Below, piece by piece: positions 1 to 16,667 of a stretch of 20,000 bases of DNA (the first letter of the stretch is position 1; the number at the start of each line of letters is the position of its first letter). The notes under the pieces were generated by a model. That model was given only the letters and a program-made list of their open reading frames with translations. It was not told where the DNA came from and did not search any database. A program made the position numbers and the translations under genes. Source of the stretch: an uncultured virus (IMG/VR IMGVR_UViG_3300020411_003822) (taxonomy: Duplodnaviria > Heunggongvirae > Uroviricota > Caudoviricetes); IMG/VR virus record IMGVR_UViG_3300020411_003822; one strand, given 5' to 3'.

Positions 1-1
1 G

Positions 2-139
2 TATGTAGAAGACGAAAATGGAAAACTTGTGAGAAAAAGCACAGGAAAGAGGCTTACAATGGAAGAACATGAAGAAGCGATTATCAATGGTCGCTTTGCA
101 GAAACTGAACACAAGGGGGGCAGGGAGTCATCGTCCTGA
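2..139 (+). CDS. 3' end of hypothetical protein (partial, begins before window)
   Basis: Frame 2 is open from base 2: YVEDENGKLVRKSTGKRLTMEEHEEAIINGRFAETEHKGGRESSS*, TGA at 137-139. It reads through the ACTGAAC motif at 104 as T-E-H. Confidence 0.7.
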   Translation, partial: YVEDENGKLVRKSTGKRLTMEEHEEAIINGRFAETEHKGGRESSS

Positions 140-171
140 GGCATCCCATCCCTACGGATACCCTGCTCCCC
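115..171 (+). other. GC-rich stem-loop between cassette junctions
   Basis: GGGGGGCAGGG (115-125) pairs with CCCTGCTCCCC (161-171), 11 bp with one G-U; inner ATCC-CTAC-GGAT hairpin at 148-159. Confidence 0.6.
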
Positions 172-179
172 ACCTAAAC

Positions 180-701
180 ATGACTGAAACTGAACCAGTT
201 GAGGTAAAAGTTCTACCCTATGAAGGATATGAACTGACGGAATGGGAATTGCGTAGCAATCCCGACAAAAATGGATTGAGAAAGATAGAAGGAATTGATT
301 GCAAGACATCGTGGCCGACAGAAGTTGAAGTCGGACAGCACCTTGTAAGAAATAATCTCACCTTAGAAGAAGTGAAAAAAGTAGAACGAGGACCAATTAC
401 AACATGGATCTTGGGAGAATACATGCACAACGACAAAATTGTACAGTACAATGTCGAGAACCACAACAAACAATGGGTAATCATACTTGAAGAACAAACT
501 GAATTAGTCCAAGCGGAAATCAAACTTCATCTCAAAATGCGAGAAATTGCGCATGAGCATGTGAAGAAAAAAATCGAAGAAGCTGAGGCTAAGGGGGAAC
601 CTTTGTTCAAACCTACACGCTTCCGACACAAGGAAACAGGAGAGATTGTAACTCAAATTAACTTGATGCAGATCAAGAATTACGAGAAACTCGATGACTG
701 A
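180..701 (+). CDS. Hypothetical protein (array unit)
   Basis: ORF track gives 69..701, but ATG 180 follows the degenerate motif CCTAAAC and 69-179 overlaps the upstream gene and hairpin. The stop TGA lies inside the motif at 697. Confidence 0.75.
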   Translation: MTETEPVEVKVLPYEGYELTEWELRSNPDKNGLRKIEGIDCKTSWPTEVEVGQHLVRNNLTLEEVKKVERGPITTWILGEYMHNDKIVQYNVENHNKQWVIILEEQTELVQAEIKLHLKMREIAHEHVKKKIEEAEAKGEPLFKPTRFRHKETGEIVTQINLMQIKNYEKLDD

Positions 702-703
702 AC

Positions 704-994
704 ATGACTGGACAGGAACCAGAACAGGAAAAGGTTGGAGTTTGTGGATACTGCGATTTTGTGCAGGGATACCACCCTCACAACATGTTGCGTATTGACG
801 AGAACCCACGATTAGCATATGACTTTTGCAAGTCGTGCGGAGGGCATCATTTGCAACCAACATCACAATGCAAGGATTTCATACCGAGAAATCCAGATGT
901 GTATGAGGGTTCGATTTGGTTTTGCCAGGGCTGCGGTTCTGGAACTGAGTTCGAAATCACAATGAAAGAGGCCTTGAAAAAAGCAGATTACTGA
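704..994 (+). CDS. Small Cys-rich (zinc-ribbon-like) hypothetical protein (array unit)
   Basis: 96 aa; CGYC, CKSC, CQGC motifs; starts at motif ATG and stops in the next motif's TGA. Confidence 0.8.
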   Translation: MTGQEPEQEKVGVCGYCDFVQGYHPHNMLRIDENPRLAYDFCKSCGGHHLQPTSQCKDFIPRNPDVYEGSIWFCQGCGSGTEFEITMKEALKKADY

Positions 995-996
995 AC

Positions 997-1281
997 ATGG
1001 ACACATATTGCAGTTTATGTGGGGAACCTTTTGACATTGGAGAATTTTCATACATGGAAAGATTCGATGCAGAAGAGGCATCTAAGATATTCCGCCTATA
1101 CGGTTGCGGGATCTTATGGAAAATGGAAATGAATCCAGAATTGTCTTTGGAAGAGGCAAAGGAATTCAAATGTAGCCCAAGAAATGTTGAGATGAAACAC
1201 CTTGCAGATATGGCAGGCGCATTAGGCGACATCATGGGCGATGATATTGACGGATTAGCATCATTGATGGATGGATACTGA
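997..1281 (+). CDS. Small hypothetical protein with N-terminal CxxC (array unit)
   Basis: 94 aa; YCSLCGEPFD; bounded by motifs at both ends. Confidence 0.8.
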   Translation: MDTYCSLCGEPFDIGEFSYMERFDAEEASKIFRLYGCGILWKMEMNPELSLEEAKEFKCSPRNVEMKHLADMAGALGDIMGDDIDGLASLMDGY

Positions 1282-1282
1282 A

Positions 1283-1510
1283 ATGAGCAAAATCAAGGAA
1301 GAAGCGATTGACTTACGATCATCCTTGCACAAAGTAAGGGAAATTTGCAAGCAAAATGCAAAAATGATAAATGAAATCCCAAGCAAATGGACTCGTGCAC
1401 AAAGCGCGAAAGAATTTACGGGATTAGCCGATTACATCGGATGCTTACTCATAAAGGACGATAAGGGAAGAGAAAAGGCATTATTGCGCTGGGCGAAAAA
1501 AAACAAATGA
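1283..1510 (+). CDS. Small basic hypothetical protein (array unit)
   Basis: ORF track 1271..1510; start moved to ATG 1283 in ACTGAA-ATG (MSKIKEE...); stop 2 nt before the next motif. Confidence 0.75.
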   Translation: MSKIKEEAIDLRSSLHKVREICKQNAKMINEIPSKWTRAQSAKEFTGLADYIGCLLIKDDKGREKALLRWAKKNK

Positions 1511-1519
1511 ATACTGAAC

Positions 1520-1972
1520 ATGGCTCACTATTATTGCAAAAGATGCAAAAGACAAATGAAAATATCTTGGCAAGCACCCACTACCAAAATATGTGCAAGG
1601 TGCTGCAGAGAAGAAAGAGAGAGTACAGGAAAACCGATTCCTGGTCCTAAAGGACTGAACATGAAAGAAAAGGCCGATTGGTCCATTTGCGTTGATTGGG
1701 AAGTCGATGAAAATGATTGGATAACAGAGGAAAGAACAGAAAACTTGGCGAAACTATCCGTCTGTTTACTGTTCAACCATCGCTTTCCGAAGTGGATTTG
1801 GAAGGCACTTTGGTATAATCTGCCCTGGAAAGCAGCAGAAGCCACAGAGAAATACATCAAAGAACATTCAGATATTTTGGATGAAAAAGGATGGCCAGAA
1901 GCGAATGAATACATCAAGGAATTGAGAAAAACAATAAAGCAAACTGAACATGAGTTGGCGATGCCGATGTGA
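1520..1972 (+). CDS. Hypothetical protein, apparently an in-frame fusion of two array units (Zn-finger 1520-1660 + unit from ATG 1661)
   Basis: CKRC...CARCC in the first 47 aa; internal ACTGAACATG at 1654 reads G-L-N-M in frame; C-terminus reads through the 1943 motif as T-E-H. Confidence 0.75.
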   Translation: MAHYYCKRCKRQMKISWQAPTTKICARCCREERESTGKPIPGPKGLNMKEKADWSICVDWEVDENDWITEERTENLAKLSVCLLFNHRFPKWIWKALWYNLPWKAAEATEKYIKEHSDILDEKGWPEANEYIKELRKTIKQTEHELAMPM

Positions 1973-2240
1973 TGAAGATGAATTGCCAATCCTACGGGGA
2001 TTGGTAGATGAGATCCTCTGCAAAGCGGAGGAAATGGAACAAAGCACGAACCGCTTTCTAAGAGAGGTTGGTGCAGAATTGAAGAAAACAATTTGGGAAT
2101 CTAACAATGAACCCAAAAACGATGGTTCACCTATCTGGTGGCCGAGACACGAAACGATTAACGGCAACATCTGCTTAATCGAAGAGATTCTTGATGAGAA
2201 CCAAGAACCAATTAAGATGCGTGTTAAACACGAATACTGA
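1950..2240 (+). CDS. Small acidic hypothetical protein (array unit)
   Basis: 96 aa; starts at motif ATG and ends at the TGA in the motif at 2236. Confidence 0.8.
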   Translation: MSWRCRCDEDELPILRGLVDEILCKAEEMEQSTNRFLREVGAELKKTIWESNNEPKNDGSPIWWPRHETINGNICLIEEILDENQEPIKMRVKHEY

Positions 2241-2242
2241 AC

Positions 2243-2647
2243 ATGAGTATCTGCGGACATTGCAATACGGAAATTACATCTGAACCTATGAGCAAAGGTG
2301 TATATGGAGGGGACTGGATTTCCAGTTGCCCTATTTGCGAATGGTGTAGTGAAAGCGAAGAAGATTCGAAGATTAAACAGGGATTAACCCTTGAGGAGCT
2401 TGTCGAACATAAAGCCAAATTGAATAGCGTATATGCGAAATTACACGATCTTGTATTTCGAGCAAGAAGTGCAAAAGGAGCATATAGGCAACATTCGACC
2501 AGCCATACTCCCAACAAATCATTTGTGAACAGAACTATGTCAGAAGAAATAATGGTGGAACTTGGTGAAGCCATGAATCAACTTTTGGACAAAACTGAAC
2601 ACCCTGCTGTGCAAGCGCACGGCAGGGCTATTTTGCGGCCTCGATGA
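2243..2647 (+). CDS. Hypothetical protein with N-terminal zinc ribbon (last array unit)
   Basis: 134 aa; CGHC...CPICEWC; reads through the 2594 motif (T-E-H) into the hairpin region. Confidence 0.75.
   Translation: MSICGHCNTEITSEPMSKGVYGGDWISSCPICEWCSESEEDSKIKQGLTLEELVEHKAKLNSVYAKLHDLVFRARSAKGAYRQHSTSHTPNKSFVNRTMSEEIMVELGEAMNQLLDKTEHPAVQAHGRAILRPR
2602..2634 (+). terminator. Hairpin plus short T-tract closing the array (putative terminator or structural site)
   Basis: CCCTGCTGTGC-AAGC-GCACGGCAGGG (2602-2627; 11 bp, one G-U) followed by CTATTTT; a further T8 at 2663-2670. Confidence 0.5.
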
Positions 2648-2691
2648 AAACGGGGTCGCCTATTTTTTTTGGCCCTCATGAAAACGGGGTC
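2628..2691. repeat. Imperfect tandem direct repeat (2 copies, about 32-34 bp period)
   Basis: Exact ATGAAAACGGGGTC at 2644-2657 and 2678-2691, each preceded by CTATTTT...GGCC(C)TC. Confidence 0.8.
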
Positions 2692-2824
2692 ATTCTATGA
2701 TTCGACCACACTTTCTGCAACTACGAGGGTGGCATCCAGAGTGCCGAGGGCAGGGGTTTTCACATTTACATTCATCGGACATGCTCGCAGAATATCCGCT
2801 CGACTTCATAACGGTGTCGCTACG

Positions 2825-2837
2825 ATTAAACGGATGA
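2825..2837 (+). promoter_or_regulatory. Conserved upstream motif (putative promoter), copy 1
   Basis: ATTAAACGGATGA, 17 nt before ATG 2855. Confidence 0.65.
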
Positions 2838-2854
2838 AGCACTTGCCCTTTACC

Positions 2855-3154
2855 ATGACAACAGTTGGCGGTATGAATTGGAATGAATTTCGCAAGCAGC
2901 ACAAAGGAGAGGACAAAGAGAGAATCTCCGAACTATGGAAACTATACAAAGAAGGAGAATACGACCCCGAAGCTTCAACAAACATCGACCCAAATCACGG
3001 ACACGATCTGGACTACATCGCAGAAGTAGAAGCAGAGATGGCCGAAGAAGCCGAAGAAAATGAAGTCAAGAGAGAACCTGAGCAACAGGAATACTTGAAC
3101 GAGTTAAACAACGAAGAGAAAAGAACCGGTTTGAAATCAATCACTCACTGGTGA
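2855..3154 (+). CDS. Acidic hypothetical protein
   Basis: ORF track 2669..3154; start revised to ATG 2855 (MTTVGGMNWNEFRKQHKG...) from motif spacing and because 2669-2854 is repeat-rich; 3' end overlaps the convergent gene by 14 nt. Confidence 0.7.
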   Translation: MTTVGGMNWNEFRKQHKGEDKERISELWKLYKEGEYDPEASTNIDPNHGHDLDYIAEVEAEMAEEAEENEVKREPEQQEYLNELNNEEKRTGLKSITHW

Positions 3155-6089
3155 AGTTATTTTTCATCGCTTCCATTCTCTCAAGGTAATCCTTGAACTC
3201 ATGGTCTATCCATGTGATCGTGTCATAATTAGCACCATATCTGACTACTGTGCCAGGTTCCAGTTCACTGATTGGTATATCCGGCAATCTTTCATTCATC
3301 AATTTCCGCTCCTCTTTCGTTCTTTTCGGAGCCTTAATCAATTTCTTGTTGTAAACAGACCTTAACTGACTCTCAAACTTCTTCTCTTCTTTGGCAGTGG
3401 GTGCACTTGTGCCCTCAGAGAGATTGTATTCCTCCAATAATGAATCCAATGATTGAATTGCATACTTCCAATCATCGATTAATTCTATGAATGAATCCTG
3501 AGCCAATAACTCTTCCTTCATTTCAGCCCAAACTCGAAGATGTTGTTGTTGCTCAATATCCTCTTTCCTTCCGCCTGCAGAAAGAGTTTCAAGAATAGAA
3601 TCCGCTTCACCAGTCCAAGATTTACCCGTAACCTCAACGGCAAAATCATTCACTGCTGTATAAGCATCTTTCAATTGCGCTTTCAAAGCGAGAAGCTGTT
3701 TAGTCGGTACAGATGCATATTTGCCTTCTCCAGCCTCGCCAAGAGTTCCGTGTTTGTCCACTTGGCCAGCGATCTGACTTGAAAGTGGATGATTCATATC
3801 ATCAATCAATCCCATCGGTGCTGCACTAAGCAAAACTTGTGTCTGTCTCTCATAGGCCTGAGCAAGCACACTTTGGTAATGCCTGGGAACACCGTCAATA
3901 ATCTCAGTTCGAGCACCTTTGGTCGCAGCCCTACCTGTTACGGAAGCAGAACCAGAGCGGGCGTTTGACATGACAATATCACTACACAAGGAATCAGCGA
4001 GTAACAAGTAATGCTTGAAATGAACAGGAACAGTTTTCCCTCCAGAAAGTATCGTTTTCCCATTACCTTGAGCGTTGAACATATTGTGGGCAAGTTGCGC
4101 TCTTGCCGCTTCAATCCCAAGAACAAGTTCAACCTGCCTTGAATCACTTGTTGTTGTACGATTAAAATCAATTTTCAATTTCTGAGTCCCAGTCAAGTCA
4201 TCGTTGTAATCATAATTCGATGCAGTTATGAAATGACCCTTGAAATTATTCATTCGACCATCATTGATGTCTTTGTAAGAAAGCAAAATGTAGTATTCAT
4301 CCATTATTGGATCGTTAATGATTCGACCTCCATGCATAAAGGCAAGCGGATAATCAGAGTTTTGACCTTTACGACTTGCACCTGGATAAGTCAAAAAGGA
4401 AATATCATCAGGATAAATTGTGTATTCTCCATTCACCTTGTAATCAAGACTACCTATGTGCTTCGCAATATCGACTTGACCCATGTGATCTTCTGCTCTG
4501 TAATCAGCAACCATTCCAATTTCCGCTTCTTCGTATTTTCCATCTTCAACATCTTTTGCCTCAATGGTTTGGTCCCATTCCTGATAGGGTTTGCCATAAT
4601 TGAATTGAACCACATTAGCGTTGATATTGTACCATCCGTGATGACAATTTCCACAACGCCTTAATTTCCGACCAAGTTCAGCAATCTCGAAATCATATCT
4701 ATCTGATGTAGACATATCAATTTCAACCAAACCAACCGATTCATCTTGTAGCCTCTCTAATTCTTCATCAGTCAATCCTTCTGGGTTATCCTTGACTCCC
4801 GTAATATCAAAGGAACTACCAGCAGTAGCTTCAGCGAGCAAATTCGAAACAACAGTCGCATCATATTCCGTCTGAGGCCATCTTGAGTCCCATTCTGGAT
4901 CCTCCACCTTTTCAGTACCTTTCCTTCCAGCCTTGTGTACCAATTTAGCAAGAGTAACAGGGTGTTTACAGTTTCCACACACCTCCAAACGCATTAAAAT
5001 CTGCATCAAACTCATTTCAAGACGGAAGGTGAGGTATGGAAAAGTAAGTACAATGCCTGTAATTTTTTCATCACCTATCTCTACCGTCACGCCATTTCGG
5101 TCCGACATCTTACAATTCTTCCAAATAAAGTGAAGCGGATTATCTGCATCCCCTACTGTTCTAAAGGAGCCATCAGATGTTCTCAGTTGCCGCCTAATGA
5201 TGGTCCATAATTGTGCTACATCATTCAAATCGTTCTTCTTCAACTGGTTATACTCGAATGAGTTTCGATCAGACAATGCTAATTCAAGTTCAGATTCAGA
5301 TAAGTTGCTATTCAACATTCTTTCATTCTTCAAGTAAATGAAATATGATTGAGACTTTGCCGCCTCAAGTTGTGCTTTGAAGGCTAAATTCTGCAATCTC
5401 TTATGCTCATCAAGGACAGCCTGGTATTCTGGCAAAGGCTTTCCAGTCACCTCAACCATTTCGTCTAAAACTTCACTGTACTCTTGTTTCGTCTCATAAC
5501 GCTCTTCCTCAGGAAATGACCTAACCTTCTCATACGCCTTTTCAAGCACCCCTGAAAGCATCAATTGAATATGAGCAGGTTCATTCTTTACAATACCGCA
5601 ATGGTCGGACAAAACAGTTCTTTTCAAGCCCTTAGCAAGTTTTTCCGCCTTGTTCTTGTCGAATCTAATCTCCGGAGGTAACGCTAAAGCAACAAGTGCG
5701 TTCTTGTTCGGTGTCTTCCCTACCTCGATATTGAGAAGTTCTAATTCATCCTTGTTTGTAAGCACACCAGCATAGTGGAATGTTCTCATTCCTCCCTGAT
5801 ATGCAGGTTCAGAAATTGAAGTCGCAGCAATTGGGCCAATAGGCGTCATTGGATCTATCCTTGCTTCTAAAACAGATTTCTGTAAACCATCCAACACCTT
5901 CTTCACAAAATCATTGGGAACATCACTCAATTTCCTGTATTTTTCTGTAAGAGGTTCCTTTGTATCGGCATCCACGGCACCCATCTTAGTGGCAACATCA
6001 AGGAGCATCAAGTCATTAACAGCATAATGTGTATTGTCCAGGGAATCCCTCAAAAGATTCTGCCAGTCCAGTACGAGGTCCGCCGCCAT
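3141..6089 (-). CDS. rpo1C: Divergent, enlarged archaeal-type RNA polymerase subunit A'' (Rpo1C) homologue, about 982 aa
   Basis: Collinear A'' motifs: [30 protein letters not shown] (trigger loop; archaeal consensus [22 protein letters not shown]), KTP...[64 protein letters not shown]...QIAGQ. Start set at ATG 6089 by the upstream motif. Confidence 0.88.
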   Translation of the reverse strand: [982 protein letters not shown]

Positions 6090-6105
6090 GAAGTCGCTAA
6101 GCAGT

Positions 6106-6118
6106 TCATCCGTATGAA
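6106..6118 (-). promoter_or_regulatory. Conserved upstream motif, copy 2 (Rpo1C homologue)
   Basis: Minus strand TTCATACGGATGA, 16 nt before ATG 6089. Confidence 0.7.
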
Positions 6119-6135
6119 GAAAGCGACAGTTGAAA

Positions 6136-6801
6136 TTACGATTCAATCATTTCTCGAAGACGCTTAGCCTTGACTGGGCCGCCACAAACCTTCACAAACG
6201 ACTGCCAAGAACCATCCTTCTCAGGGTCTTTCCAAGATTCATATTCTCGTTGTACTTCCTCAGGAACTTCCATTATCATTTCCGCTGGAATATCTGGAGC
6301 GGAACCATTTGATTCAATCACGGGAGTCATGTCCTCCTCGACAGGGATTTGTTCAACCTCTTGCTCTTCCTCTTTCTCTTCATCTTCTCTCGAAGAAATC
6401 TCGTTGAATAATTCAGGATCACTGTATAACACATTAGTGTATGAAGGCTCATCAGATTTGATTCTCTCTTCCATTTCGTCTAATTTCCTGATAACAAGCC
6501 CTGCGAATTGTTGGTTAGCTTGTAGCATAGCCTCCGCATTCAAATGATGCAGTTTCCTCAAATTGTCAATATGTCCTGGAAGCCAAACAGGTTCCGCCAA
6601 AATCTGCTCAAATAGCGACATGCGCTTATCCATAGCATCCAACCTTCTCACGATTGCCTCAAAACCCAACAGTATTTTCTTGGTATCGATTTCCGTAGTT
6701 TCTGTTCCCTGCATGGTATCTTGTGGAACATCAGAGTTTGCATCTTGAGGGATTTCTGGAACAAAGCCAGGTCGAAACGAAGAAGCCCAGTCATCTGACA
6801 T
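6136..6801 (-). CDS. Acidic hypothetical protein with coiled-coil segments
   Basis: ORF track 6136..6807; ATG 6801 (MSDDWASS...) is 17 nt below the motif. Confidence 0.75.
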   Translation of the reverse strand: MSDDWASSFRPGFVPEIPQDANSDVPQDTMQGTETTEIDTKKILLGFEAIVRRLDAMDKRMSLFEQILAEPVWLPGHIDNLRKLHHLNAEAMLQANQQFAGLVIRKLDEMEERIKSDEPSYTNVLYSDPELFNEISSREDEEKEEEQEVEQIPVEEDMTPVIESNGSAPDIPAEMIMEVPEEVQREYESWKDPEKDGSWQSFVKVCGGPVKAKRLREMIES

Positions 6802-6818
6802 GAACAAAGCGATAACTC

Positions 6819-6831
6819 TCAGCCGTTTGAA
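6819..6831 (-). promoter_or_regulatory. Conserved upstream motif, copy 3
   Basis: Minus strand TTCAAACGGCTGA, 17 nt before ATG 6801; its TGA is also the RNase H stop codon. Confidence 0.7.
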
Positions 6832-7316
6832 TGTGTGGGAGAAAGCATACTTGCAATTCTCGCCAGCCGATCTGCATCGGTATTCTCTTCACGGGGCAAA
6901 TATTTGAAATCAATTCGCAGCACATTTGAAGTGAAATTGTTAATCAAGCCATTTCTAAGATACTGTACATAATTGTGCAATTCTTGTAATCGTGGCTCCT
7001 TGACTTTGTATTCACCGTTAATTTGCCTGATAACAAGTTGAGAATCGCTGTAAATGATAACTTCCATTAGACCAACCACATCTAAAGGACCTCTTGTGAC
7101 GGGGCCTCCAAGCCCTGTCTGCAAATACTTCAGCGCACCAATGACTGCATGATACTCTGCCTCATTATTCGTGGACTTAGGGGGGAGAGGTACTAAAAAT
7201 CGAGCAGTGGGCCTCCATTCATTGAGATTCGGGCCAAATGCCTGCTCAACATGTACGCCAGAACCACTGCCTCGACCAACAAAATTAGATCCATCACAAA
7301 AAATCTTCACTTTCAT
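6819..7316 (-). CDS. rnhA: Ribonuclease HI (type 1 RNase H)
   Basis: KIFCDGS, STNNEAEYHAVIGAL, IYSDSQLVIRQINGEYKVK, LPREENTDADRLA: D-E-D-D catalytic set intact. Confidence 0.93.
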   Translation of the reverse strand: MKVKIFCDGSNFVGRGSGSGVHVEQAFGPNLNEWRPTARFLVPLPPKSTNNEAEYHAVIGALKYLQTGLGGPVTRGPLDVVGLMEVIIYSDSQLVIRQINGEYKVKEPRLQELHNYVQYLRNGLINNFTSNVLRIDFKYLPREENTDADRLARIASMLSPTHSNG

Positions 7317-8062
7317 TCACAATCACACTCCGAACCACAACTCATTGGCTCTCTTCTATCAATTCGTTTGAAACAATGACTGCACATCAATACGCCTTGA
7401 CCTAACACCGGCCAAGAAATGCCCCCTGGCATGTATTTCTCCAAAACATCATCGATTTCCTGTCCAAATTGAATAACATCTCTCCGACTCAATCGAGTAA
7501 AGGGTGCTTTTGCAGTTACTTGCGATAACGGATGAGTAAAACAATCCTCCAGTGGCCCACTTCCTTGCTGAATAATGCGCCTCATCGAAGCAATCCATCT
7601 CTTGCCCGACATTCTCAAACTCATTCTGTGCACGGGGTGAACAAGAAGATTGTCGCCAAGCCCCGCATTATTTGAAACAACCAGTGCTACTGCATTTGAG
7701 GCATTGGGTGCACGAATGTCTATCTCTAATTGAGAATCAATATCAACAACATGCCAATCATATTCGTCACGATCTAACTCAAGTTCGAACGGCACCGGAG
7801 AATCAGACCAACTCCAACCTGTATGTTGCAGAACTTCTGTTGGAAGTTGAGTAGAGTAATGGGAACCTTCCGAATCAATAGCAACAATTCTGAAATACTT
7901 GTGTCCAGTTCTTTCTTCAATAAACAACCTGGATTGCTTTATTTCACAGTTTCCTTTACCTCTAATTTTAATTTTATGTCCTCTTTGCGGTCCTTCGAAA
8001 ACATTGTCTTGGTTGAACATAACAGGAGCGGGGAACCCTCTGCCTCTTGAAGCCTTCGTCAT
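7313..8062 (-). CDS. Hypothetical protein with C-terminal Cys cluster
   Basis: 249 aa; CSHC...CGSECDC; 4-nt ATGA overlaps with both neighbours. Confidence 0.75.
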   Translation of the reverse strand: MTKASRGRGFPAPVMFNQDNVFEGPQRGHKIKIRGKGNCEIKQSRLFIEERTGHKYFRIVAIDSEGSHYSTQLPTEVLQHTGWSWSDSPVPFELELDRDEYDWHVVDIDSQLEIDIRAPNASNAVALVVSNNAGLGDNLLVHPVHRMSLRMSGKRWIASMRRIIQQGSGPLEDCFTHPLSQVTAKAPFTRLSRRDVIQFGQEIDDVLEKYMPGGISWPVLGQGVLMCSHCFKRIDRREPMSCGSECDCE

Positions 8063-8571
8063 ATTTTCTTCCCCCCGAACAAAGCGCCAAAGATCATGGT
8101 AATTCCCTCAGCAACTTTGCCTAATGAAAGACCGGCCTGCTTTGATTCCCAAGTACCATGCAAAGCGTAATTCGCATAGTGCTCGCAGTTCCGTGTCAAT
8201 AAGTTGTAATCATTGCGATGCAACATTTCTTTCGCTCTATCAAGAACAGGTATAGGCTCATCTGGAACTTCAACGATTTCAATATCTCTGCCTTCGGAAA
8301 AACGAACATAATCAGTCAAACCAACCCTGGTGCCAGTATGGCTATCGGGAGCATCAACAGATGGACTCCAAACACGATTTAGCAACCTTGACGACCAAGA
8401 CTGCTCCGAAATCTCCCCCTCATAGACGCCCCCAAACTGATAGATTAGTTGCAATCTGGTATCAGGGTGATAATACTCAGAAGCTACACCATAATGGAAA
8501 AAACTGCCTCTCTGAAACCTTCTTCGAAGAATTGCACCAGGAGGAAAGGGCATTTCGGGCTCTTCGTCCAT
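8059..8571 (-). CDS. LRAT-like (H-box/NC) circularly permuted NlpC/P60 thiol enzyme
   Basis: PGAIL...FFHYGV (H-box), LDRAKEML, YNLLTRNCEHYANYALHGTWESKQ (NCEH motif); hydrophobic/amphipathic C-terminal tail. Confidence 0.88.
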   Translation of the reverse strand: MDEEPEMPFPPGAILRRRFQRGSFFHYGVASEYYHPDTRLQLIYQFGGVYEGEISEQSWSSRLLNRVWSPSVDAPDSHTGTRVGLTDYVRFSEGRDIEIVEVPDEPIPVLDRAKEMLHRNDYNLLTRNCEHYANYALHGTWESKQAGLSLGKVAEGITMIFGALFGGKKI

Positions 8572-8601
8572 GAGTGTCCTAACACTGTCTGCCTCATAGG
8601 G

Positions 8602-9000
8602 TTAATCCCAATCAGTTATTGGCTGGTGTCGAGAAGCCACTAAAGCAAAAACTCCTACAGTCTTGTATCTTCCATCTGCAGCTTTCAATACTCTACTGTT
8701 AATTCGTTTGAAATCAGGGTGGCGAAACACACCGCCTACAATTCGAGGATCACAATCTGCTGGCAACGGCAGTTCCGACAATACATCTTCAATAGTCACC
8801 TCTCCACTATCAGTTGCAATTCTCACAGCAACAGACCTTGCTTCCTCTATCCAAGAATAACGCAGGGGTTTTGTAGTCGAGGATAATTCAAGTTCTCGCA
8901 GTTTTTCCTTTAGTCGTGAAGATTGATCACTGGGCAATTTGAACATGCTCGTAATAACTCGCATTACTTTCTCCACATCATCTGCCTTCATTGGCTTCAC
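8602..9000 (-). CDS. Hypothetical protein, possibly winged-helix DNA-binding
   Basis: 132 aa (GTG 9000 or ATG 8991); GEVTIEDV...DPRIVGGVFR resembles small viral helix-turn-helix proteins; judged by eye only. Confidence 0.65.
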   Translation of the reverse strand: MKPMKADDVEKVMRVITSMFKLPSDQSSRLKEKLRELELSSTTKPLRYSWIEEARSVAVRIATDSGEVTIEDVLSELPLPADCDPRIVGGVFRHPDFKRINSRVLKAADGRYKTVGVFALVASRHQPITDWD

Positions 9001-9422
9001 TCCATAGGCGAAATTTCGATTAACACTGAGGGCGCTTCTCCTTGAGCAACTTGAACTTTCAAAACTTGTAGGGATGATATTTGCCGGTCATCATCAGCAA
9101 GCATACCAGAAGCAAATAGGGCATCCATGTAATGTTTAGCAATGTTATCCACATCAGGCCCGTTAGATTTCCACTGTGCTTGCAAAGGAGTTCTTTTCCT
9201 ATGCTTTGATTTAGGGCACGCAAATTTAGCGACAATACGAACTGCAATAGCCCCAGTCATGCGCTGAAAATCCTCAGGCAGTTGGCTTTTCGCCATAACT
9301 TGAATGTGAGCCTTACTCGATTTAGATTCCGCCTTCTCATATGCGATTGGCTTACCTGAGCGCGTTGAAAATCGAGGCCTACCCTGTGCCATAGGCGGCC
9401 CTGGAATCTCAATCTTGTACAT
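8997..9422 (-). CDS. rusA: RusA-family Holliday junction resolvase
   Basis: IPGPPMAQGRPRF, PDVDNIAKHYMDAL, DDRQI; start revised to ATG 9422 (MYKIEIPG), preceded by GGAGG. Confidence 0.92.
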   Translation of the reverse strand: MYKIEIPGPPMAQGRPRFSTRSGKPIAYEKAESKSSKAHIQVMAKSQLPEDFQRMTGAIAVRIVAKFACPKSKHRKRTPLQAQWKSNGPDVDNIAKHYMDALFASGMLADDDRQISSLQVLKVQVAQGEAPSVLIEISPME

Positions 9423-9753
9423 GCTTATCCTCCAACTGATCCAAAACAAAAGCAACCATGTCCGTCCACTTAGACCAAGAATTGACTCGCTTTAATCTCC
9501 CTAATTCATCCCTTACTTCGAGCGGAACATCACGACAAACGATGAACCCAGTATCTTCTTTGGTCCAATCAACTTGCATTGGGGTGATTTTCTCAGAGTT
9601 CTCAAGCACCCAGTAAGCCATATCTGCCCAAGAGTTCCAACCCATCTTGCGTCTGACTACAATCAAACGGTCCTTTACATCAAAAGGAAGCCCTCTCAGA
9701 ACAATATTTCCAGTTAGAACTGGAATCAGAACCTTCGGTTCATCGTCCTCCAT
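9409..9753 (-). CDS. Protein with two internal ribbon-helix-helix-like repeats (putative regulator)
   Basis: GNIVLRGLPFDVKDRL...MGWNSWADMAYWVLE and GFIVCRDVPLEVRDEL...NSWSKWTDMVAFVLD; start ATG 9753 (alternative 9759). Confidence 0.65.
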   Translation of the reverse strand: MEDDEPKVLIPVLTGNIVLRGLPFDVKDRLIVVRRKMGWNSWADMAYWVLENSEKITPMQVDWTKEDTGFIVCRDVPLEVRDELGRLKRVNSWSKWTDMVAFVLDQLEDKHVQD

Positions 9754-9769
9754 GCACATGCCAAGCCTT

Positions 9770-9782
9770 TGAACCGTTTGAA
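9770..9782 (-). promoter_or_regulatory. Conserved upstream motif, copy 4
   Basis: Minus strand TTCAAACGGTTCA, 16 nt before ATG 9753. Confidence 0.65.
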
Positions 9783-9794
9783 GTTAGGGCAAGA

Positions 9795-10526
9795 CTATCC
9801 CATTAATCGGCTCAAGACCTGCTCTGTTTCATCATTCTTTGTTAGCAAATTGGAAATTAAATTATCTTGGGGTTGTTTCTGTGAATCATCCTCCCAATAT
9901 TCATTGTATTCTGGATCAGGTGTACCATAATTCGATAATAACGGCTTATCCCTATCCTCTTCTTTCCGAATATGCTTGAGATAATTTGCAACTTTATCCA
10001 TATCAAGTGTGTCTATGAATTGAGATGCTTTACGAATTTCATCAGAAATGCCACGAATGTCAATGTCGTCAAAGGAATGTAATCCAGGGGCGACCTCATC
10101 TCGAACATTTTCAAGCAAATCCCTGATTGCGGGAACATTGATTCCATCAAGTTGCGTGTGGAAAGCTTCCAATCTGTTTGCGGCTACATGAAGCGACTCA
10201 AGCAATTCCACCATTCTCGCCTCCATGAGATCTGCTTTATCTTCAACCCGTACCGTAACAACAGAAATCAACAGGTTTGTGCCAATTGTAAACGCCAAAG
10301 CAGCAGCAAGAATGTATGTCCATGCAGTCGGATAGATGTAACTCACAACTGGAGCAGACATTACCAATAAAGCAGTAAATACGAACAATATGGACCGAAT
10401 GCGCTTATCATACTCGATAGATTCTCGCATACTGACAATGTCCTGTTCTAAACCAACAGGAGATTCCCATTCCTCCTCCTCCTCCTCATATATTGGGACA
10501 AGAGAAGGAAGCGACAAATCAATCAC
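9795..10526 (-). CDS. Membrane protein (2 predicted TM helices) with helical soluble domain
   Basis: Hydrophobic ILFVFTALLVMSAPVVSYIY and WTYILAAALAFTIGTNLLISVVTV; GTG start overlapping the upstream stop. Confidence 0.75.
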   Translation of the reverse strand: MIDLSLPSLVPIYEEEEEEWESPVGLEQDIVSMRESIEYDKRIRSILFVFTALLVMSAPVVSYIYPTAWTYILAAALAFTIGTNLLISVVTVRVEDKADLMEARMVELLESLHVAANRLEAFHTQLDGINVPAIRDLLENVRDEVAPGLHSFDDIDIRGISDEIRKASQFIDTLDMDKVANYLKHIRKEEDRDKPLLSNYGTPDPEYNEYWEDDSQKQPQDNLISNLLTKNDETEQVLSRLMG

Positions 10527-11047
10527 TCGCCTGATGTATTCGGCTCCTCTGAATCAGGTATGCCATCATTGTCATCGTCTTGATCTACATCATCAGGGAT
10601 TCCATCACCGTCAGTGTCCTTCTTGACGCCCATCATTTGTCCAAGACTGGTTACAGGCTTTACTGCAGCGCCAACAACGGCACCTGCGGCCTTTTGTGCA
10701 ACATTCTTTGGTTTTGGCTCTTCGACCTTCAATTCTGGAGCATCCTCATCTTTTTCTTCATCACGAACCCATTCTGGAACGCCGTCTTTCAAAACAAGAT
10801 GCAAAAGAAGCCATTGTTGTGCAACAGTCAGTGGCGCATCCAAAGCCTTCTCCTTGAATCCTTCGAAACGCCTATCTGTCAGCCCACCCTTAATGAAATT
10901 AACCAACCGAGCAAGGTCAGGTTCCCCAGCACCCAAATATCGCTTACAACGATTTACCCAACTGTCTCTTATCCTGATTCCTTTTGTCAAGAAACCAGGA
11001 AGCATTGTCTTTCCAAGATCATACGCATATAACGATTCATCACCCAT
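10523..11047 (-). CDS. Hypothetical protein with thrombospondin type-3-like Ca-binding repeat
   Basis: C-terminal KDTDGDGIPDDVDQDDDNDGIPDSEE. Confidence 0.75.
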   Translation of the reverse strand: MGDESLYAYDLGKTMLPGFLTKGIRIRDSWVNRCKRYLGAGEPDLARLVNFIKGGLTDRRFEGFKEKALDAPLTVAQQWLLLHLVLKDGVPEWVRDEEKDEDAPELKVEEPKPKNVAQKAAGAVVGAAVKPVTSLGQMMGVKKDTDGDGIPDDVDQDDDNDGIPDSEEPNTSGE

Positions 11048-11053
11048 TTCTGT

Positions 11054-12478
11054 TCACACTCCTTTAGCCGCAGCCAATACTCCCTCAATTACTTGCCGAT
11101 TCTCGGCTGCAGAGAGGAATTCGATGTCGTATGCAATATTTTTCTGCCCAGGTGGGTCGCAGTCTGCATAACTTGTAATAATCTCCATTAGAGATTCGTA
11201 TGATTCATGCTGGAAAACTTCCCATAGCTGATGGTCTCGCATGAATGAGCCGGCCATTTCTATTGAAACAACTCCTTTGTTGATATTTTGAACACTCATA
11301 CCAAGAATACGCAGGTTCACGATAACCAATAATTCCATGATTGAACGCTCGATTTGGTTCTGTACCGAAGTTGGATACATATCCTCTGCTCTTCGAACCG
11401 CTCTTTCAGTAGTTCTCTTCAAGATTTCAATGAATACTTCGTTACTCTTCCATTGGTCAGGCAATGTTTGATGTATTTGTTGCATTACTGCCCTACATTT
11501 GTCCTCAAAGGAAACTTCTGGAATCGGTTGTTGCATAGGAACAGGCTCTTCCCATTGTTGAAGAGCGGGTTCTGCGAATTGTGATTGAGCCTGTGGCATT
11601 GAATAACTCGGTGGTGCGCCTACTGGCGGACTTCTTGCCGACATAACAGATTTCAAACCAGTAGCGATACTTCCAGTAATCTCCGCAAGTTGTCCCGAAC
11701 GAATCAATGAGTCAAGAACAGATTCTTCTGTTCCCCCACCACCAGATCTCAATCCATCAAGTGCCATTCCAATGAGGGTTTCATCAGTTGTTGAACGACC
11801 CCCACCGTTTCGCATACTATCAATAACAAGACCCATCATTTGAGTTTGATTTTGATTCATAGCATTCATCATCATTGCTTGGTCTTGTCTTGAACGCTCA
11901 GAGTTCCGCTCTTGGCTTTCTAACAATTTCAACATGACAAGGCTATCATTCCCATCTTTCTTACTTGAGTTAGAACGAATCAATTCAGTCATTAGAGTAG
12001 CAAGCAATTGATCCGAACCTCCGCTTGCAACACCTTGCTGATACGATACACCTTGAGATTGCTCAAACTGATTTCTCGCATGATTCAAAGCAGCGACTTC
12101 CTGATAATGAGTTGTAGCATCTCGAATCGTACTTGAACCGCCTTGCGGCTCAATTGGAGTTGGCTCAAAGTTAGGAATGACTGGCGCAGCGACAGCGGGT
12201 GCGGCCTTAGCCTGAACTTTTCTCGCAGGGGGCCTGTTTCCAGCCGCCAACCAAGCCTCATGAGAAACTCGAATGACCTCGGAAGAAACGCCCATTTTCT
12301 TGGACACAAAATCCACATCAAGATTCCCTGCGGCATCATAGAAAATTGGTGTACCCACCAAATCAGTCCTACCTTCGTATTCCGGTGTGTTGTCAATCAA
12401 TTGTTGTGTCCAAACTGCCTTGAAGACAATGTCAAGTTCACTTTTCAAATCTTCCGTATTTCCTGGTCCATCACTCAT
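11054..12478 (-). CDS. Hypothetical protein (Q/M/P-rich central region)
   Basis: ORF track 11054..12490; ATG 12478 is preceded by GGTGA, an archaeal-type SD. Confidence 0.78.
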   Translation of the reverse strand: MSDGPGNTEDLKSELDIVFKAVWTQQLIDNTPEYEGRTDLVGTPIFYDAAGNLDVDFVSKKMGVSSEVIRVSHEAWLAAGNRPPARKVQAKAAPAVAAPVIPNFEPTPIEPQGGSSTIRDATTHYQEVAALNHARNQFEQSQGVSYQQGVASGGSDQLLATLMTELIRSNSSKKDGNDSLVMLKLLESQERNSERSRQDQAMMMNAMNQNQTQMMGLVIDSMRNGGGRSTTDETLIGMALDGLRSGGGGTEESVLDSLIRSGQLAEITGSIATGLKSVMSARSPPVGAPPSYSMPQAQSQFAEPALQQWEEPVPMQQPIPEVSFEDKCRAVMQQIHQTLPDQWKSNEVFIEILKRTTERAVRRAEDMYPTSVQNQIERSIMELLVIVNLRILGMSVQNINKGVVSIEMAGSFMRDHQLWEVFQHESYESLMEIITSYADCDPPGQKNIAYDIEFLSAAENRQVIEGVLAAAKGV

Positions 12479-12806
12479 TATTTTCACCACTTAATTCTCC
12501 TGGTCGGCTATGAATCATATCATCCACAACAGATCGCAGCCTTGCAAACCCTGCATCAAGCAAAGTTGCAGCCAAATCCGGAGTTGCTTGTCCCAACGGA
12601 TGAGCCGGCAACAGCCCATCCCCCTTGAGCCCACATCGGCTTCGAATTTGGTCGAGATTGCTTATGTCTTGCTCGCATATTGAAATCAAATGCGCATAAG
12701 AAAAGGGATTATCCATGAACAAACTCAAGTTCCGAATAATTCTTGATCCAATCTCTCTGATTGAATCAAGGTCTTCCTTGTTCAATTGCTCTATCGGCTC
12801 ACTCAT
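12471..12806 (-). CDS. Hypothetical protein
   Basis: ORF track 12471..12851; ATG 12806 (MSEPIEQL) is preceded by GGGGGA and overlaps the end of the upstream gene. Confidence 0.7.
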   Translation of the reverse strand: MSEPIEQLNKEDLDSIREIGSRIIRNLSLFMDNPFSYAHLISICEQDISNLDQIRSRCGLKGDGLLPAHPLGQATPDLAATLLDAGFARLRSVVDDMIHSRPGELSGENNE

Positions 12807-13140
12807 ACGGATTATCCCCCTTAGGCGCACTATCTGAATTAGATTCCGCACTTGGTTCTAAGGATTCGCTAATGAAGCTTGACAACTCTTCTAATTCGTA
12901 ATCAAAATCTTCCAGAATCTCTCTAACCTTCTCTGCATCATCATAGTACATAGCAAGAGCACGGCCCTTCGCAAAGTGCGCAGAACCAGGGTCGGTGTAT
13001 TTAATCGAGAGAACAGCATGATGCATGATGTGAATTACTTCTTCTCCATCTATGATGACATACCCGTCATCGGTAGGGATTAACTCGACATCAGACATGG
13101 AATTGCCGTTCATTAACTTGAGTTCATTAGCCTTGAGCAT
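12799..13140 (-). CDS. Hypothetical protein, first gene of the leftward unit
   Basis: ORF track 12799..13284; ATG 13140 (MLKANELK) is 17 nt below the motif. Confidence 0.72.
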   Translation of the reverse strand: MLKANELKLMNGNSMSDVELIPTDDGYVIIDGEEVIHIMHHAVLSIKYTDPGSAHFAKGRALAMYYDDAEKVREILEDFDYELEELSSFISESLEPSAESNSDSAPKGDNPYE

Positions 13141-13157
13141 GAATAGTCCCAACCCTT

Positions 13158-13170
13158 TCAGCCGTTTGAA
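13158..13170 (-). promoter_or_regulatory. Conserved upstream motif, copy 5
   Basis: Minus strand TTCAAACGGCTGA (identical to copy 3), 17 nt before ATG 13140. Confidence 0.72.
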
Positions 13171-13201
13171 GGTGGCGACTATTCGCCAATGGTCAGTATA
13201 G

Positions 13202-13409
13202 ACCATCAATGGTTGAAAAAAAACACAAAATAACAAAAAAATAATGTAATTTTGCACAAACCATTGATGGATGCATGCAAACAAACATCAATTCGACAAA
13301 CAAAGGTTTCAAGTTCCTTTGTTTTCTTTGATCAATGGTTTGGGCAAACCCACCCCCTTATTTCCAGTGGAGGCTGAAAAAACACGTGGGACTTACAACC
13401 ATCGATGGT
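13202..13409. repeat. Four iterated palindromic boxes ACCAT-YR-ATGGT in a divergent intergenic region
   Basis: ACCATCAATGGT 13202, ACCATTGATGGA 13260, TTGATCAATGGT 13328, ACCATCGATGGT 13398 (inside the perfect palindrome AACCATCGATGGTT); A-rich tract between the first two. Confidence 0.75.
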
Positions 13410-13428
13410 TTCACGCCCAATTTGGCTA

Positions 13429-13557
13429 TGCAACAAGGCATCCACTGCAACTCTAAACGAGCGAAGGCTTGATATTCCGGTTGTTGCACAGCGACAATTC
13501 CCGCCCTGAGGTTGTTGCATGAGAGACATTACAGACGCAACAGATAACGCAACAAGG
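13429..13557. promoter_or_regulatory. Cluster of GCAACA/TGTTGC boxes around the wHTH gene start (putative operator)
   Basis: TGCAACAA 13429, TTGTTGCA 13481 and 13512, GCGACAA 13491, GCAACAG 13537, GCAACAA 13549. Confidence 0.5.
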
Positions 13558-15737: not shown

Positions 15738-16180
15738 AGAAAATGTACAGGGGACGAATACCAGGTGACGACAAAAAGCATGTAGGCCCAACAGGAGGCT
15801 TAGGCGGATTAGGTCATGTAGACAAGAAAAACCCCGCTCCAAGACCCGCTCCAAGAGAATTGCTAAAGGGAACAGCGCCACCACCGAAAGCAGGGACGCC
15901 TCCATCGATAAATCTGTCAAATAGTCCCTATGCCAACGAAAACAACTCTCCTCCTAACTTTCAAACACCTACTTTCGAGAGAATGCCAGCAGCAAACCCT
16001 GCACCAGAGATTAGCAAACTGGCCGCACCTTTAGGCAATACGAAGGGAACTAAACTATTCTCATGGAAAAACGCATTGTACCTCGGTGGCCTGATGACAA
16101 CGACATATGTGGCATACAAATACACTCACCGGCAAAGTGCCGAAGACTACGAAGCAGAATTGATGGAGGATGATGATTGA
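15734..16180 (+). CDS. Pro-rich protein with C-terminal TM helix
   Basis: GTG start overlapping the upstream stop; GGLGGLG motif; hydrophobic ALYLGGLMTTTYVAY. Confidence 0.7.
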   Translation: MKKMYRGRIPGDDKKHVGPTGGLGGLGHVDKKNPAPRPAPRELLKGTAPPPKAGTPPSINLSNSPYANENNSPPNFQTPTFERMPAANPAPEISKLAAPLGNTKGTKLFSWKNALYLGGLMTTTYVAYKYTHRQSAEDYEAELMEDDD

Positions 16181-16272
16181 TGATTGAGCACTTGCCAATC
16201 CAAGCCCTACCATTTCTTTTGGCATGGTGGTTAGGAACTTCAGCCGCTGAAATGAAAAACGGGAGGAATTGA
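16180..16272 (+). CDS. 30-aa hydrophobic peptide (not in ORF track)
   Basis: MIEHLPIQALPFLLAWWLGTSAAEMKNGRN*; TGATG overlap with the upstream stop, GGAGG upstream; stop 1 nt before the next ATG. Confidence 0.65.
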   Translation: MIEHLPIQALPFLLAWWLGTSAAEMKNGRN

Positions 16273-16273
16273 A

Positions 16274-16666: not shown

Positions 16667-16667
16667 A

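Follow-up and report, generated by a model that had tools for sequence, protein, structure and literature searches.

We describe an orphan homologue of a core subunit of the archaeal RNA polymerase (RNAP), encoded on a 20,000-nucleotide stretch of DNA from an uncultured virus (IMG/VR record IMGVR_UViG_3300020411_003822), hereafter the window, meaning the whole stretch that was analysed. The gene lies on the minus strand at 3141..6089 (stop codon 3141-3143), and its 982-aa product is confirmed as a homologue of archaeal subunit A'' (Rpo1C), the C-terminal module of the largest RNAP subunit, in which the trigger loop and the jaw are found together with part of the cleft. Judging from the collections searched, the protein belongs to a monophyletic, deeply diverged family that appears to be confined to marine virus-like contigs. 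With moderate confidence, we favour the reading that the A''-like protein replaces host A'' and yields a virus-modified host polymerase.

The window protein matched Pfam PF04998 (RNA_pol_Rpb1_5) with 49 bits against a cut-off of 28.5 (E = 7.2e-13), and a custom hidden Markov model (HMM) of archaeal A'' recognised it with E = 7e-27. Profile searches therefore support the Rpo1C homology claimed in an earlier, sequence-only reading of this DNA (the original prediction). A sequence search against the PDB returned 28 distinct sequences at E <= 0.01; the best seven were archaeal Rpo1C/A'' (E = 2.7e-13 to 3.7e-9), the remaining 21 were eukaryotic RPC1 or RPB1, and none was bacterial beta'. In these alignments, residues 43-165 correspond to A'' 22-147, and residues 640-766 correspond to A'' 259-359. 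MRTFHYAGV, cited in the original prediction among clear A'' motifs, stands at residues 101-109. The protein is about 2.5 times as long as solved archaeal A'' chains (391-397 aa; the original prediction gave roughly 400 aa for the cellular protein). The Pfam match is stretched over residues 77-707 and therefore indicates a large insertion.

The longest open frame over the gene spans 3141..6146 on the minus strand. All 11 of 11 close homologues start with MA(A/E)DLVL, which corresponds to ATG 6089 in the window. Because this family alignment coincides with an upstream motif, described below, that ends exactly 20 nt before the same codon, ATG 6089 was taken as the start, and the coordinates first proposed for the gene proved exact. 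The Pfam search of the window detected no Rpb1 N-terminal domain, Rpb2 or ribosomal-protein family, and the stand-alone position originally ascribed to the gene is supported.

An AlphaFold2 model built on 22 family members had a mean predicted local distance difference test score (pLDDT) of 67 and a predicted template modelling score (pTM) of 0.47. Confidence was low over the trigger loop (residues 77-118), which is expected because this is a mobile loop modelled outside the enzyme. Foldseek ranked archaeal A'' and Rpb1 chains at the top (e.g., 7ok0_C, E = 2.9e-6). Structural alignment with 4ayb_C gave Z 13.5 and a root-mean-square deviation (rmsd) of 5.1 over 254 aligned residues, and alignment with 9bct_C gave Z 13.0, with 339 of 378 residues paired to model positions 4..766. 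In a search of 48,161 representative chains, independent of Foldseek, the top nine were all RNAP largest subunits (archaeal, African swine fever virus (ASFV), Pol II, two Pol I, Pol III, Pol V, Pol IV and vaccinia). According to the predicted fold, nearly the whole A'' chain is present, jaw included; since the structural alignment still covers most of A'', the jaw is retained and expanded.

Conservation within the family was highest at the trigger loop. The N-terminal arm of the trigger loop (residues 85-109; 5763..5837, minus strand) includes the catalytic-type His105, and G85, S91, E94, Q98, R102, F104, H105, Y106, A107 and G108 were invariant in the 22 members of the conservation set, whose mean column identity was 32%. 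Among the 11 close members, the trigger loop was the best conserved region, with 82% mean pairwise identity, compared with 70% in the C-terminal core, 65% in the cysteine-bracketed insert and 36%, the lowest value, in the C-terminal extension. The conserved C-terminal core of A'' (residues 640-790; 3720..4172, minus strand), aligned to A'' 259-359, carries the LGIEAAR motif, H693, D699 and E747; G658, I659, E660, R663, H693, D699 and E747 were invariant in the 22 sequences.

Within the jaw-position region (residues 165-640; 4170..5597, minus strand), insertions specific to the virus add about 400 aa: sequence alignments to A'' are interrupted at residues 162-165 and resume at 640. Searches with the full-length model returned no convincing fold other than RNAP for this part; as a lead only, its language-model neighbours were Rpb1_5/Rpb1_7 clusters (score 0.91). 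Two conserved CxxC motifs (C371, C374 ... C479, C482; 4644..4979, minus strand) bracket a sub-insertion of about 100 aa. C371, C374 and C479 were invariant and C482 was at least 90% conserved across the 22 sequences, and the four cysteines, to judge from the motif, form a presumed zinc site. The C-terminal extension of about 190 aa (residues 795-982; 3144..3707, minus strand) was modelled as a helical hairpin (796-887) followed by a small alpha/beta unit; this unit, the last ~90 aa, is missing in five of the 11 close members. Residues 788-892 gave generic coiled-coil matches only (Z about 6-7).

Compared with 78 cellular A'' sequences, the window protein kept 44 of the 88 columns conserved at 90% or more, with the reservation that the cellular set was picked by a pattern containing RTFHYAG, which inflates conservation at that spot. 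The viral family retained a mean of 47% of these columns, and giant-virus Rpb1 retained 70%. The viral protein has lost the G-x-P-R motif located after the trigger loop.

For a phylogeny with cellular Rpo1C, suggested in the original prediction, 244 core columns were analysed in a quick IQ-TREE run under a mixture model, with rows merged per domain. The tree contained 25 viral rows (three of 28 were dropped for having fewer than 180 filled columns), 78 cellular rows and 12 giant-virus rows drawn at random from 57. All 25 viral rows formed a single clade separate from cellular Rpo1C (Shimodaira-Hasegawa-like approximate likelihood ratio test (SH-aLRT) 100), with a stem of 1.46 and three deep subclades. 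A split with a support of 99 set this clade, on the side of the archaea, apart from the sequences of giant viruses, and cellular A'' sequences, including four Poseidoniales/Thalassarchaeaceae rows, formed separate clades. IQ-TREE warned of long-branch joins. A tree in which the family was forced together with the Poseidoniales clade was not rejected by the approximately unbiased (AU) test (delta log-likelihood 2.25, p = 0.44). The simplest reading is that the gene was captured once, long ago, or evolved very fast, and was then passed on vertically for a long time within the lineage of the element. A cellular-type rpo1C lies directly downstream of rpo1N in the rpoH-rpoB-rpoA1-rpoA2 cluster, encodes about 350-520 aa and falls inside a cellular clade; the A''-like gene lies outside such a cluster, encodes 982 aa and belongs to its own clade.

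Several searches found no member of the family. Similar proteins were not found by tblastn in 50,697 phage records, BFVD gave no structure matches to prokaryotic-virus proteins at E <= 0.01, and a first scan of viral contigs with a single-protein query returned nothing. A collection of 5.8 billion proteins yielded 10 relatives (45-92% identity, 810-983 aa), all metagenomic. An exhaustive representative search produced 134 matches at E <= 0.001; the 13 at E <= 1e-30 were the family itself, either full-length relatives or fragments aligning beyond the A'' core, and the weaker ones mostly aligned only around the trigger-loop region. Among 59 matching loci in IMG/VR, 57 were partial, mostly covering residues ~47-175, on contigs named giant-virus metagenome-assembled genomes (MAGs). 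The other two were full-length matches at 25-26% identity, both in complete records with direct terminal repeats and an estimated completeness of 100%. These complete relatives, G001 (127,570 bp) and G002 (128,784 bp), are classed as viral by IMG/VR.

The 80 loci retained from a metagenome collection included an identical copy on a 93,127-bp contig (L075) and ten viral-type loci (L076-L085), and the rest were cellular rpo operons. In 49 metagenome loci with an NADFDGD-bearing A' ORF, A'' followed A' or was fused to it in nearly all cases. In 185,579 prokaryote species genomes (one per species), the 80 best matches were all cellular-type A'' aligned over the core only (best E = 5e-12), with no viral-type copy among them. 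By title, 79 of these 80 were archaea and one was a bacterial-labelled MAG that fell inside the ANME-1 clade. This last locus (L224, 'Desulfobacteria bacterium' MAG) carries an archaeal rpoA2 and is probably a mis-binned contig.

The window itself appears sound. Once reverse-complemented, positions 1-9426 are identical to the opening 9,426 bases of the L075 contig, and the window extends past the end of that contig. Contigs of four other runs covered 25-30 of 30 depth bins (30 of 30 in X3 and X4), and one 5.4-kb contig spanned 6394-11389, across position 9426. Because contigs from other runs bridge it, the junction at 9426 is real and the window is no chimera. DNA runs with a word share of at least 0.2 came from seven studies, labelled marine, seawater or estuary except for one coded organism; four RNA runs contained next to none of the window's sampled words.

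Other core subunits were sought mainly in the two complete relatives. The catalytic domain RNA_pol_Rpb1_2 (PF00623) was found in neither genome by a six-frame search that was positive in all 14 control genomes. Pfam was run on 116 of the 174 ORFs called in G001 (at least 110 aa, E <= 0.001) and on 106 of 158 ORFs of G002 (at least 120 aa) together with one more G001 ORF (E <= 0.01), one 985-aa G002 ORF being left out; the only Rpb1 or Rpb2 domain detected in them was Rpb1_5, in the A''-like proteins. HMMs of A' (32 sequences), B (32 sequences, with split B''+B' concatenated) and A'' (36 sequences) were built from cellular metagenome operons and searched against six-frame translations of eight related loci as well as of the window, G001 and G002. 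Every viral copy was detected by the A'' HMM (G001, 6e-33; G002, 2e-31; others down to 2e-37), whereas the best E-values of the A' and B HMMs in the same sequences, 2.3 and 3.7, were noise. Alignment by hhalign of 16 G001 proteins of at least 440 aa with the A' and B profiles gave probabilities of at most 1.4%, and an NADFDGD-like motif ([..]D[FYW..]D[GAS]D) occurred in no called ORF of the genomes examined.

Consequently, neither of the two marks of a complete virus-encoded RNAP, an NADFDGD double-psi beta-barrel subunit and B/Rpb2, was found in G001 or G002. The window's own genome is at least 93 kb long, and a protein identical to the 221-aa partner described below is found on a 135-kb contig; in the ~27 kb of this genome that were checked, no A' or B was detected. 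The search for Rpo1N and Rpo2 beyond the neighbourhood of the gene, also suggested in the original prediction, thus ended without a candidate. A 29-residue Rpb2_5 match below the cut-off (E = 0.0094) in a 537-aa DUF6011/DUF7007 protein (L075:12777-14390, minus strand) was attributed to chance, since the B HMM gave no match in this region. The best conserved portions of such enzymes normally reside in A' and B, which makes a set with only A'' recognisable unlikely.

Two further transcription-related parts are known from the complete relatives. G001 encodes a 363-aa protein with a TFB fold (58114-59205, plus strand; L063:1114-2205), with a homologue in G002 (L073:2130-3080, plus strand). Its Pfam TFIIB matches were all sub-threshold, although 10 of 12 family members matched TFIIB at E < 0.1. 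As a single sequence it matched nothing in the PDB; with the family profile, the six best PDB sequences were all human TFIIB (E = 0.009-0.036). All PDB fold matches of its AlphaFold2 model (pLDDT 70) at E <= 0.001 were TFIIB, TFB or Brf chains, and superposition on Pyrococcus woesei TFB (1ais_B) gave a TMt of 0.76 and an rmsd of 3.4 over 233 columns. The protein has two cyclin repeats and conserved N-terminal cysteines, and is highly diverged. Genes for tRNA-Lys and tRNA-Arg lie just downstream of it in G001.

The second part is a TFS/TFIIS-type zinc ribbon (L064:15769-15981, minus strand; Pfam 24.5 bits, cut-off 21) within a 2,464-aa ORF of G001 (88514-95908). The ribbon reads C.C...QMRSSDEPET...C..C, and we take its QMRSSDEPET hairpin to resemble the acidic hairpin of TFS/TFIIS. 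The same protein contains ATP-dependent DNA ligase, DUF5824 and FGase-like domains. Giant proteins near it in G001 carry guanylate kinase and DUF7831, in odd fusion or polyprotein-like architectures. Virus-encoded TFBs as such are already known, from a genome map of Aoguangviridae (PMC10768690) and from the Asgard virus JinchiV1 (PMC13700489).

A conserved motif, TTCAAACGG, is located 20-22 nt upstream of the start codons of the A''-like gene and of others. Upstream of the A''-like gene it reads CTTCATACGGATGAA (6105..6119, minus strand), and its 9-mer core TTCATACGG (6110-6118) ends 20 nt before ATG 6089; the upstream motif noticed in the original prediction is therefore real and conserved across related genomes. 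Further copies on the minus strand are ATTCAAACGGCTGAG (6818..6832), whose core ends 21 nt before ATG 6801 of the 221-aa partner gene; CTTCAAACGGTTCAA (9769..9783), with ATG at +14 and +20, at a 116-aa gene; and CTTCAAACGGCTGAA (13157..13171), at the first gene of the minus-strand cluster, its core ending 21 nt before ATG 13140. The orthologue of the 13140 gene in G001 (741-1094) carries the same motif. Copies of the motif stand before the immediate upstream neighbour of the A''-like gene in G001, G002, L080, L083 and L085, and in G001 also before the thermosome gene and a glycosyltransferase gene.

Allowing up to three mismatches, the 15-mer CTTCAAACGGYTGAA had seven copies in the window versus 1.44 expected, a number reached in one of 200 shuffles; each of the four best copies closely precedes a gene start on the minus strand. 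The core was then sought in 356.5 kb, with six related loci and the L075 extension searched along with the window, G001 and G002. Exact TTCA[AT]ACG[AG] sites numbered 44, versus 17 in the reversed sequence. An ATG or GTG of an ORF of at least 60 codons lay exactly 20-22 nt downstream of 18 of the 44 sites, versus none of the 17 in the reversed control.

No Shine-Dalgarno-like sequence lies between TTCATACGG and ATG 6089. Across G001, G002 and the window, Shine-Dalgarno-like sequences were enriched at -15 to -11 (71 sites in 359 upstream regions); most other genes are led by them, and genes behind TTCAAACGG are without them. Because these sequences are enriched generally and absent behind TTCAAACGG, the data suggest two start modes, one operon-internal and Shine-Dalgarno-led and the other leaderless. 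The TATA box of archaeal leaderless mRNAs is centred about 25-27 nt upstream of the start. Measured against this canonical distance, the spacing of the motif fits the position of an archaeal core promoter of leaderless mRNA. Canonical TATA hexamers were rare (five sites in the 359 upstream regions), and TTCAAACGG is not TATA-like in sequence. By its position, the motif would be a promoter for leaderless mRNAs; it may instead be a regulator site or an RNA element.

The acidic 221-aa gene at 6136..6801 (minus strand; 27 homologues) lies directly upstream of the A''-like gene in all genomes examined (window, G001, G002, L080, L083 and L085). Five longest-contig sizes are common to the two families (45,809; 13,079; 10,510; 17,093; and 21,010). 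The 221-aa protein has a conserved core, LVIRKLDEMEERIKSDEPSYTNVLYSDPELFNEI, and a W...F.K.CGG tail; it matched no Pfam or PHROG family and had no usable fold match in Atlas. It is a candidate binding partner of the A''-like protein.

The original prediction had offered two mechanisms, a swap of this subunit into host RNAP and a dispersed RNAP of the element's own. As no A' or B is detectable in the two complete relatives, the swap is the better reading, and the second mechanism is disfavoured. Replacement of host A'' best fits the joint presence of an invariant trigger loop, complete fold and cleft motifs and TFB/TFS-type parts, which act on the host enzyme, with the lack of detectable A' and B in the complete relatives. 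The constraint on the trigger loop across so deep a family leads us to expect a working polymerase part rather than a decoy, and the A''-like gene has kept its neighbourhood in the window, G001 and G002. During infection, the A''-like protein would be built into newly assembled host RNAP in place of host A''. The hybrid enzyme would keep a working trigger loop, so that catalysis would be retained, and would gain a much larger jaw region, zinc site included, together with helices that extend the C-terminus, offering new surfaces for virus-specific partners or altered properties. Possible roles of the jaw and tail include docking of the 221-aa partner or other viral factors, handling of downstream DNA, and insensitivity to a host or viral regulator. 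The hybrid would act within a wider transcription-takeover kit composed of the TFB-fold factor, the TFS-like ribbon (both from the relatives) and the genes behind TTCAAACGG. A more specific form, in which the chimeric core RNAP, with viral A'' displacing that of the host, reads the non-TATA promoter TTCAAACGG together with the viral TFB and TFS-like ribbon, is put forward more tentatively.

Several observations weigh against replacement of host A''. A core subunit can be exchanged only if RNAP is assembled de novo in the infected cell, a slow course for a lytic virus. The fit of the protein to the host enzyme is uncertain, since half of the conserved columns are changed and G-x-P-R is lost. 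The absence of A' and B rests on relatives whose A''-like proteins are only 25-27% identical to that of the window. In the tree, the viral clade sits in a basal polytomy outside the Poseidoniales/Thermoplasmatota clade, and its origin is not placed. The thermosome gives no host signal either, being 39% identical to that of a Poseidoniales MAG versus 37-38% for three other archaea. Finally, no capsid, portal or protease families were detected among the scanned ORFs of G001 and G002, so the element may not be a virus.

The A''-like protein could instead belong to a complete polymerase that the element encodes itself, with catalytic partners too diverged or too oddly split to be detected; we consider this unlikely. 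Some phage polymerases were at first missed by sequence and profile methods, G001 contains ORFs of 983, 1479, 1195, 1036 and 790 aa without a Pfam or PHROG match, the window's genome was seen over ~27 kb only, and the conserved trigger loop means that some polymerase uses it. However, A' and B are normally better conserved than A'', and their profiles reached no better than E = 2.3 where A'' gave 1e-31 to 1e-33; moreover, the hhalign comparison of the large proteins was negative, no D-x-D-G-D type motif was seen, and the TFB- and TFS-like parts suit use of the host enzyme. Similarly improbable is a decoy or poison subunit that binds host A', B or assembly intermediates, or occupies the A'' site, and so shuts down or sequesters transcription. 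The altered columns and the large insertions, which might block normal function, would fit such a role, as would the viral RNAP inhibitors known to act at the jaw or DNA channel, namely Acidianus two-tailed virus (ATV) ORF145/RIP and T7 Gp2. From its title, we take PDB 7oqy to be a host regulator bound to archaeal RNAP. Yet a decoy needs interfaces and not a catalytic loop, and across a very deep family nothing in the protein is better conserved than the trigger-loop residues; without a polymerase of its own, the element also needs host RNAP for its genes.

A domain exapted outside RNAP, for example as a nucleic-acid-binding or replication accessory protein, would explain why the gene clusters with RNase H, RusA and no-family genes and why A'' offers no counterpart to more than half of its length. 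The A'' fold is nevertheless retained almost in full, with its catalytic and cleft motifs, we know of no activity of an A'' module alone, and we regard this explanation as less probable still. Least credible is that the gene is a cell's own rpo1C on a chromosome fragment, or an assembly chimera. No capsid or portal genes were recognised nearby or in the relatives, which would suit a cellular origin, but syntenic copies reside on two complete ~128-kb genomes with terminal repeats that are classed as viral. Cellular A'' sequences form separate clades and follow or are fused to A' in nearly all of the 49 loci inspected, none of the 80 best species-genome matches was of the viral type, and contigs bridge position 9426.

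Compared with known systems, the A''-like protein shares with cellular A'' (8cro_C, 4qiw_C, 2waq_C, 9bct_C) the fold and the xRTFHYAGV, LGIEAAR and H...D motifs; it differs in lying outside an H-B-A'-A'' operon, in its insertions, four-cysteine site and extension, and in its location on a virus-like element. Giant-virus RNAPs are likewise virus-borne homologues of the largest subunit (ASFV 8q3b, Z 10.1; vaccinia 6rfl, Z 7.2; models of pithovirus and other giant viruses), but they come with catalytic and second-largest subunits, whereas the complete relatives encode only the C-terminal module. The jumbo phages phiKZ and AR9 encode RNAPs of split beta and beta' subunits. Host RNAP is appropriated by phage sigma factors, T4-type modifiers, T7 Gp2 and ATV ORF145/RIP. 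The likely logic here is similar, to redirect or remodel the host polymerase, and the relatives encode a TFB-fold factor; in contrast to the known factors, which are accessory, act at initiation or inhibit by binding from outside, the A''-like protein is a homologue of a core catalytic-centre subunit and would have to take the place of its counterpart in the host enzyme.

Appropriation of RNAP by viruses and virus-borne RNAP homologues are both already known, and core-subunit replacement would be the bolder reading. If true, it would mark the first instance in which a virus substitutes its own protein for a core catalytic-centre subunit in a cell's multisubunit RNAP, and would represent a new mode of host takeover, by core-subunit replacement as opposed to an added factor or inhibitor. 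It would also form a natural parallel to the paralogous largest subunits that created specialised eukaryotic polymerases, and a natural experiment on the limits of exchange and enlargement of the trigger-loop/jaw module. Archaeal RNAPs can be reconstituted from recombinant subunits, and the element supplies candidate cognate parts: the TFB-fold factor, the TFS-like ribbon, the partner protein and the promoter-like motif. The gene provides an initial functional entry point to a group of abundant marine elements, which publications so far have not settled as viruses, plasmids or something else.

The original prediction called a polymerase subunit unusual for an archaeal virus. The working rule in the field is that these viruses rely wholly on the host enzyme; the abstract of the review PMC5569661, which states that archaeal viruses encode no RNAP, supports this view, and an earlier mention in print qualifies it: Philosof et al. 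(2017) noted a 'DNA-dependent RNA polymerase A' on contigs of 'Magrovirus group D' (PMC5434244). That sentence may refer to the present gene. In PMC5434244, group D had no closed genome and its nature was left open; Xu et al. (2023; PMC10160649) and a 2025 study (PMC11706807) describe the group as lacking recognisable structural genes. The term 'RNA polymerase' is absent from both of these later texts, and the main text of PMC5434244 does not analyse the polymerase gene either. Like group D, which is marine and has archaea-like genes, G001 and G002 combine a thermosome, a serine resolvase and the A''-like gene. Group D is, however, defined by a family B DNA polymerase, and none was detectable in G001 or G002: a six-frame search for PolB PF00136 found it in neither genome, although only six of 14 controls were positive, and none was present among the scanned ORFs. 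Identity with group D is unproven because the group-defining PolB was not detected. We found no published description of an orphan Rpo1C in archaeal viruses in a search that left subscription-only papers and supplements outside.

The surroundings of the gene agree with the flanks of RNase H, RusA and unknowns named in the original prediction. The RNase H gene (6819..7316, minus strand) matched Pfam RNase_H (E = 5.6e-8) and PHROG 531, and the gene of a RusA-like Holliday junction resolvase (8997..9455, minus strand) matched Pfam RusA (E = 2.9e-22) and PHROG 140 (E = 1.7e-29). At E <= 0.01, 21 of 28 scanned neighbouring ORFs had no Pfam family. The window also carries an LRAT/NlpC-like gene and a helix-turn-helix protein. 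BLASTP relatives in G001 and/or G002 were found for 17 of 27 window ORFs, and gene order over 3141-20000 is kept with both genomes except for a small three-gene inversion in G002. The shared order runs from a no-family gene of 113-117 aa through a 478-aa gene, RusA, the LRAT-like gene and (RNase H) to the 221-aa gene and the A''-like gene; divergent from this cluster are the helix-turn-helix protein and then large no-family proteins. The conserved 478-aa gene had no PDB match by sequence.

G001 and G002 have ~65 genes in common. Both encode a group II chaperonin, whose best PDB matches are thermosomes (E = 1e-80), a serine resolvase, many DNA methyltransferases and glycosyltransferases, and giant multidomain proteins; G002 additionally encodes a PCNA-like protein. 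Only two virion-type signals were seen in G001. A 252-aa protein (86118-86876, plus strand; L064:10118-10876) matched a PHROG of large terminases over its C-terminal portion (E = 3e-12), and a 993-aa protein (75337-78318, minus strand; L074:5337-8318) contained an Ig-like domain labelled 'virion structural protein'. Among the genes that the original prediction proposed to look for on the full contig, the TFB fold and the terminase-like part were thus recovered in the relatives, and a capsid gene was not. 'Virus-like' is a fair label for the element, which may instead be non-viral. Because A'', the thermosome, the TFB fold and PCNA are archaeal in flavour, the gene content points to an archaeal host, though to no particular one. 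In the 6.9 kb that L075 adds past the window start, PAPS-reductase-like and Mom-like genes occur, as in G001, together with the DUF6011/DUF7007 protein.

Two repetitive features were noted near the window ends. At 69-2647 (plus strand), seven small ORFs of 79-210 aa form an array without relatives in G001 or G002. Five of the seven start right after an ...ACTGAAC-ATG junction whose TGA is the stop codon of the preceding gene. Contigs from runs X3 and X9 skip 293 nt (696->990) and 236 nt (1274->1511), which are whole cassettes, and the array therefore varies between strains. At the other end, 19811-19984 (plus strand) contains imperfect 30-nt repeats (AACGGTGGCAACAACGCCAACGGCTTCAAC) that encode an Asn/Gly-rich stretch of a large protein running off the window end, and strain variants show small indels at these repeats.

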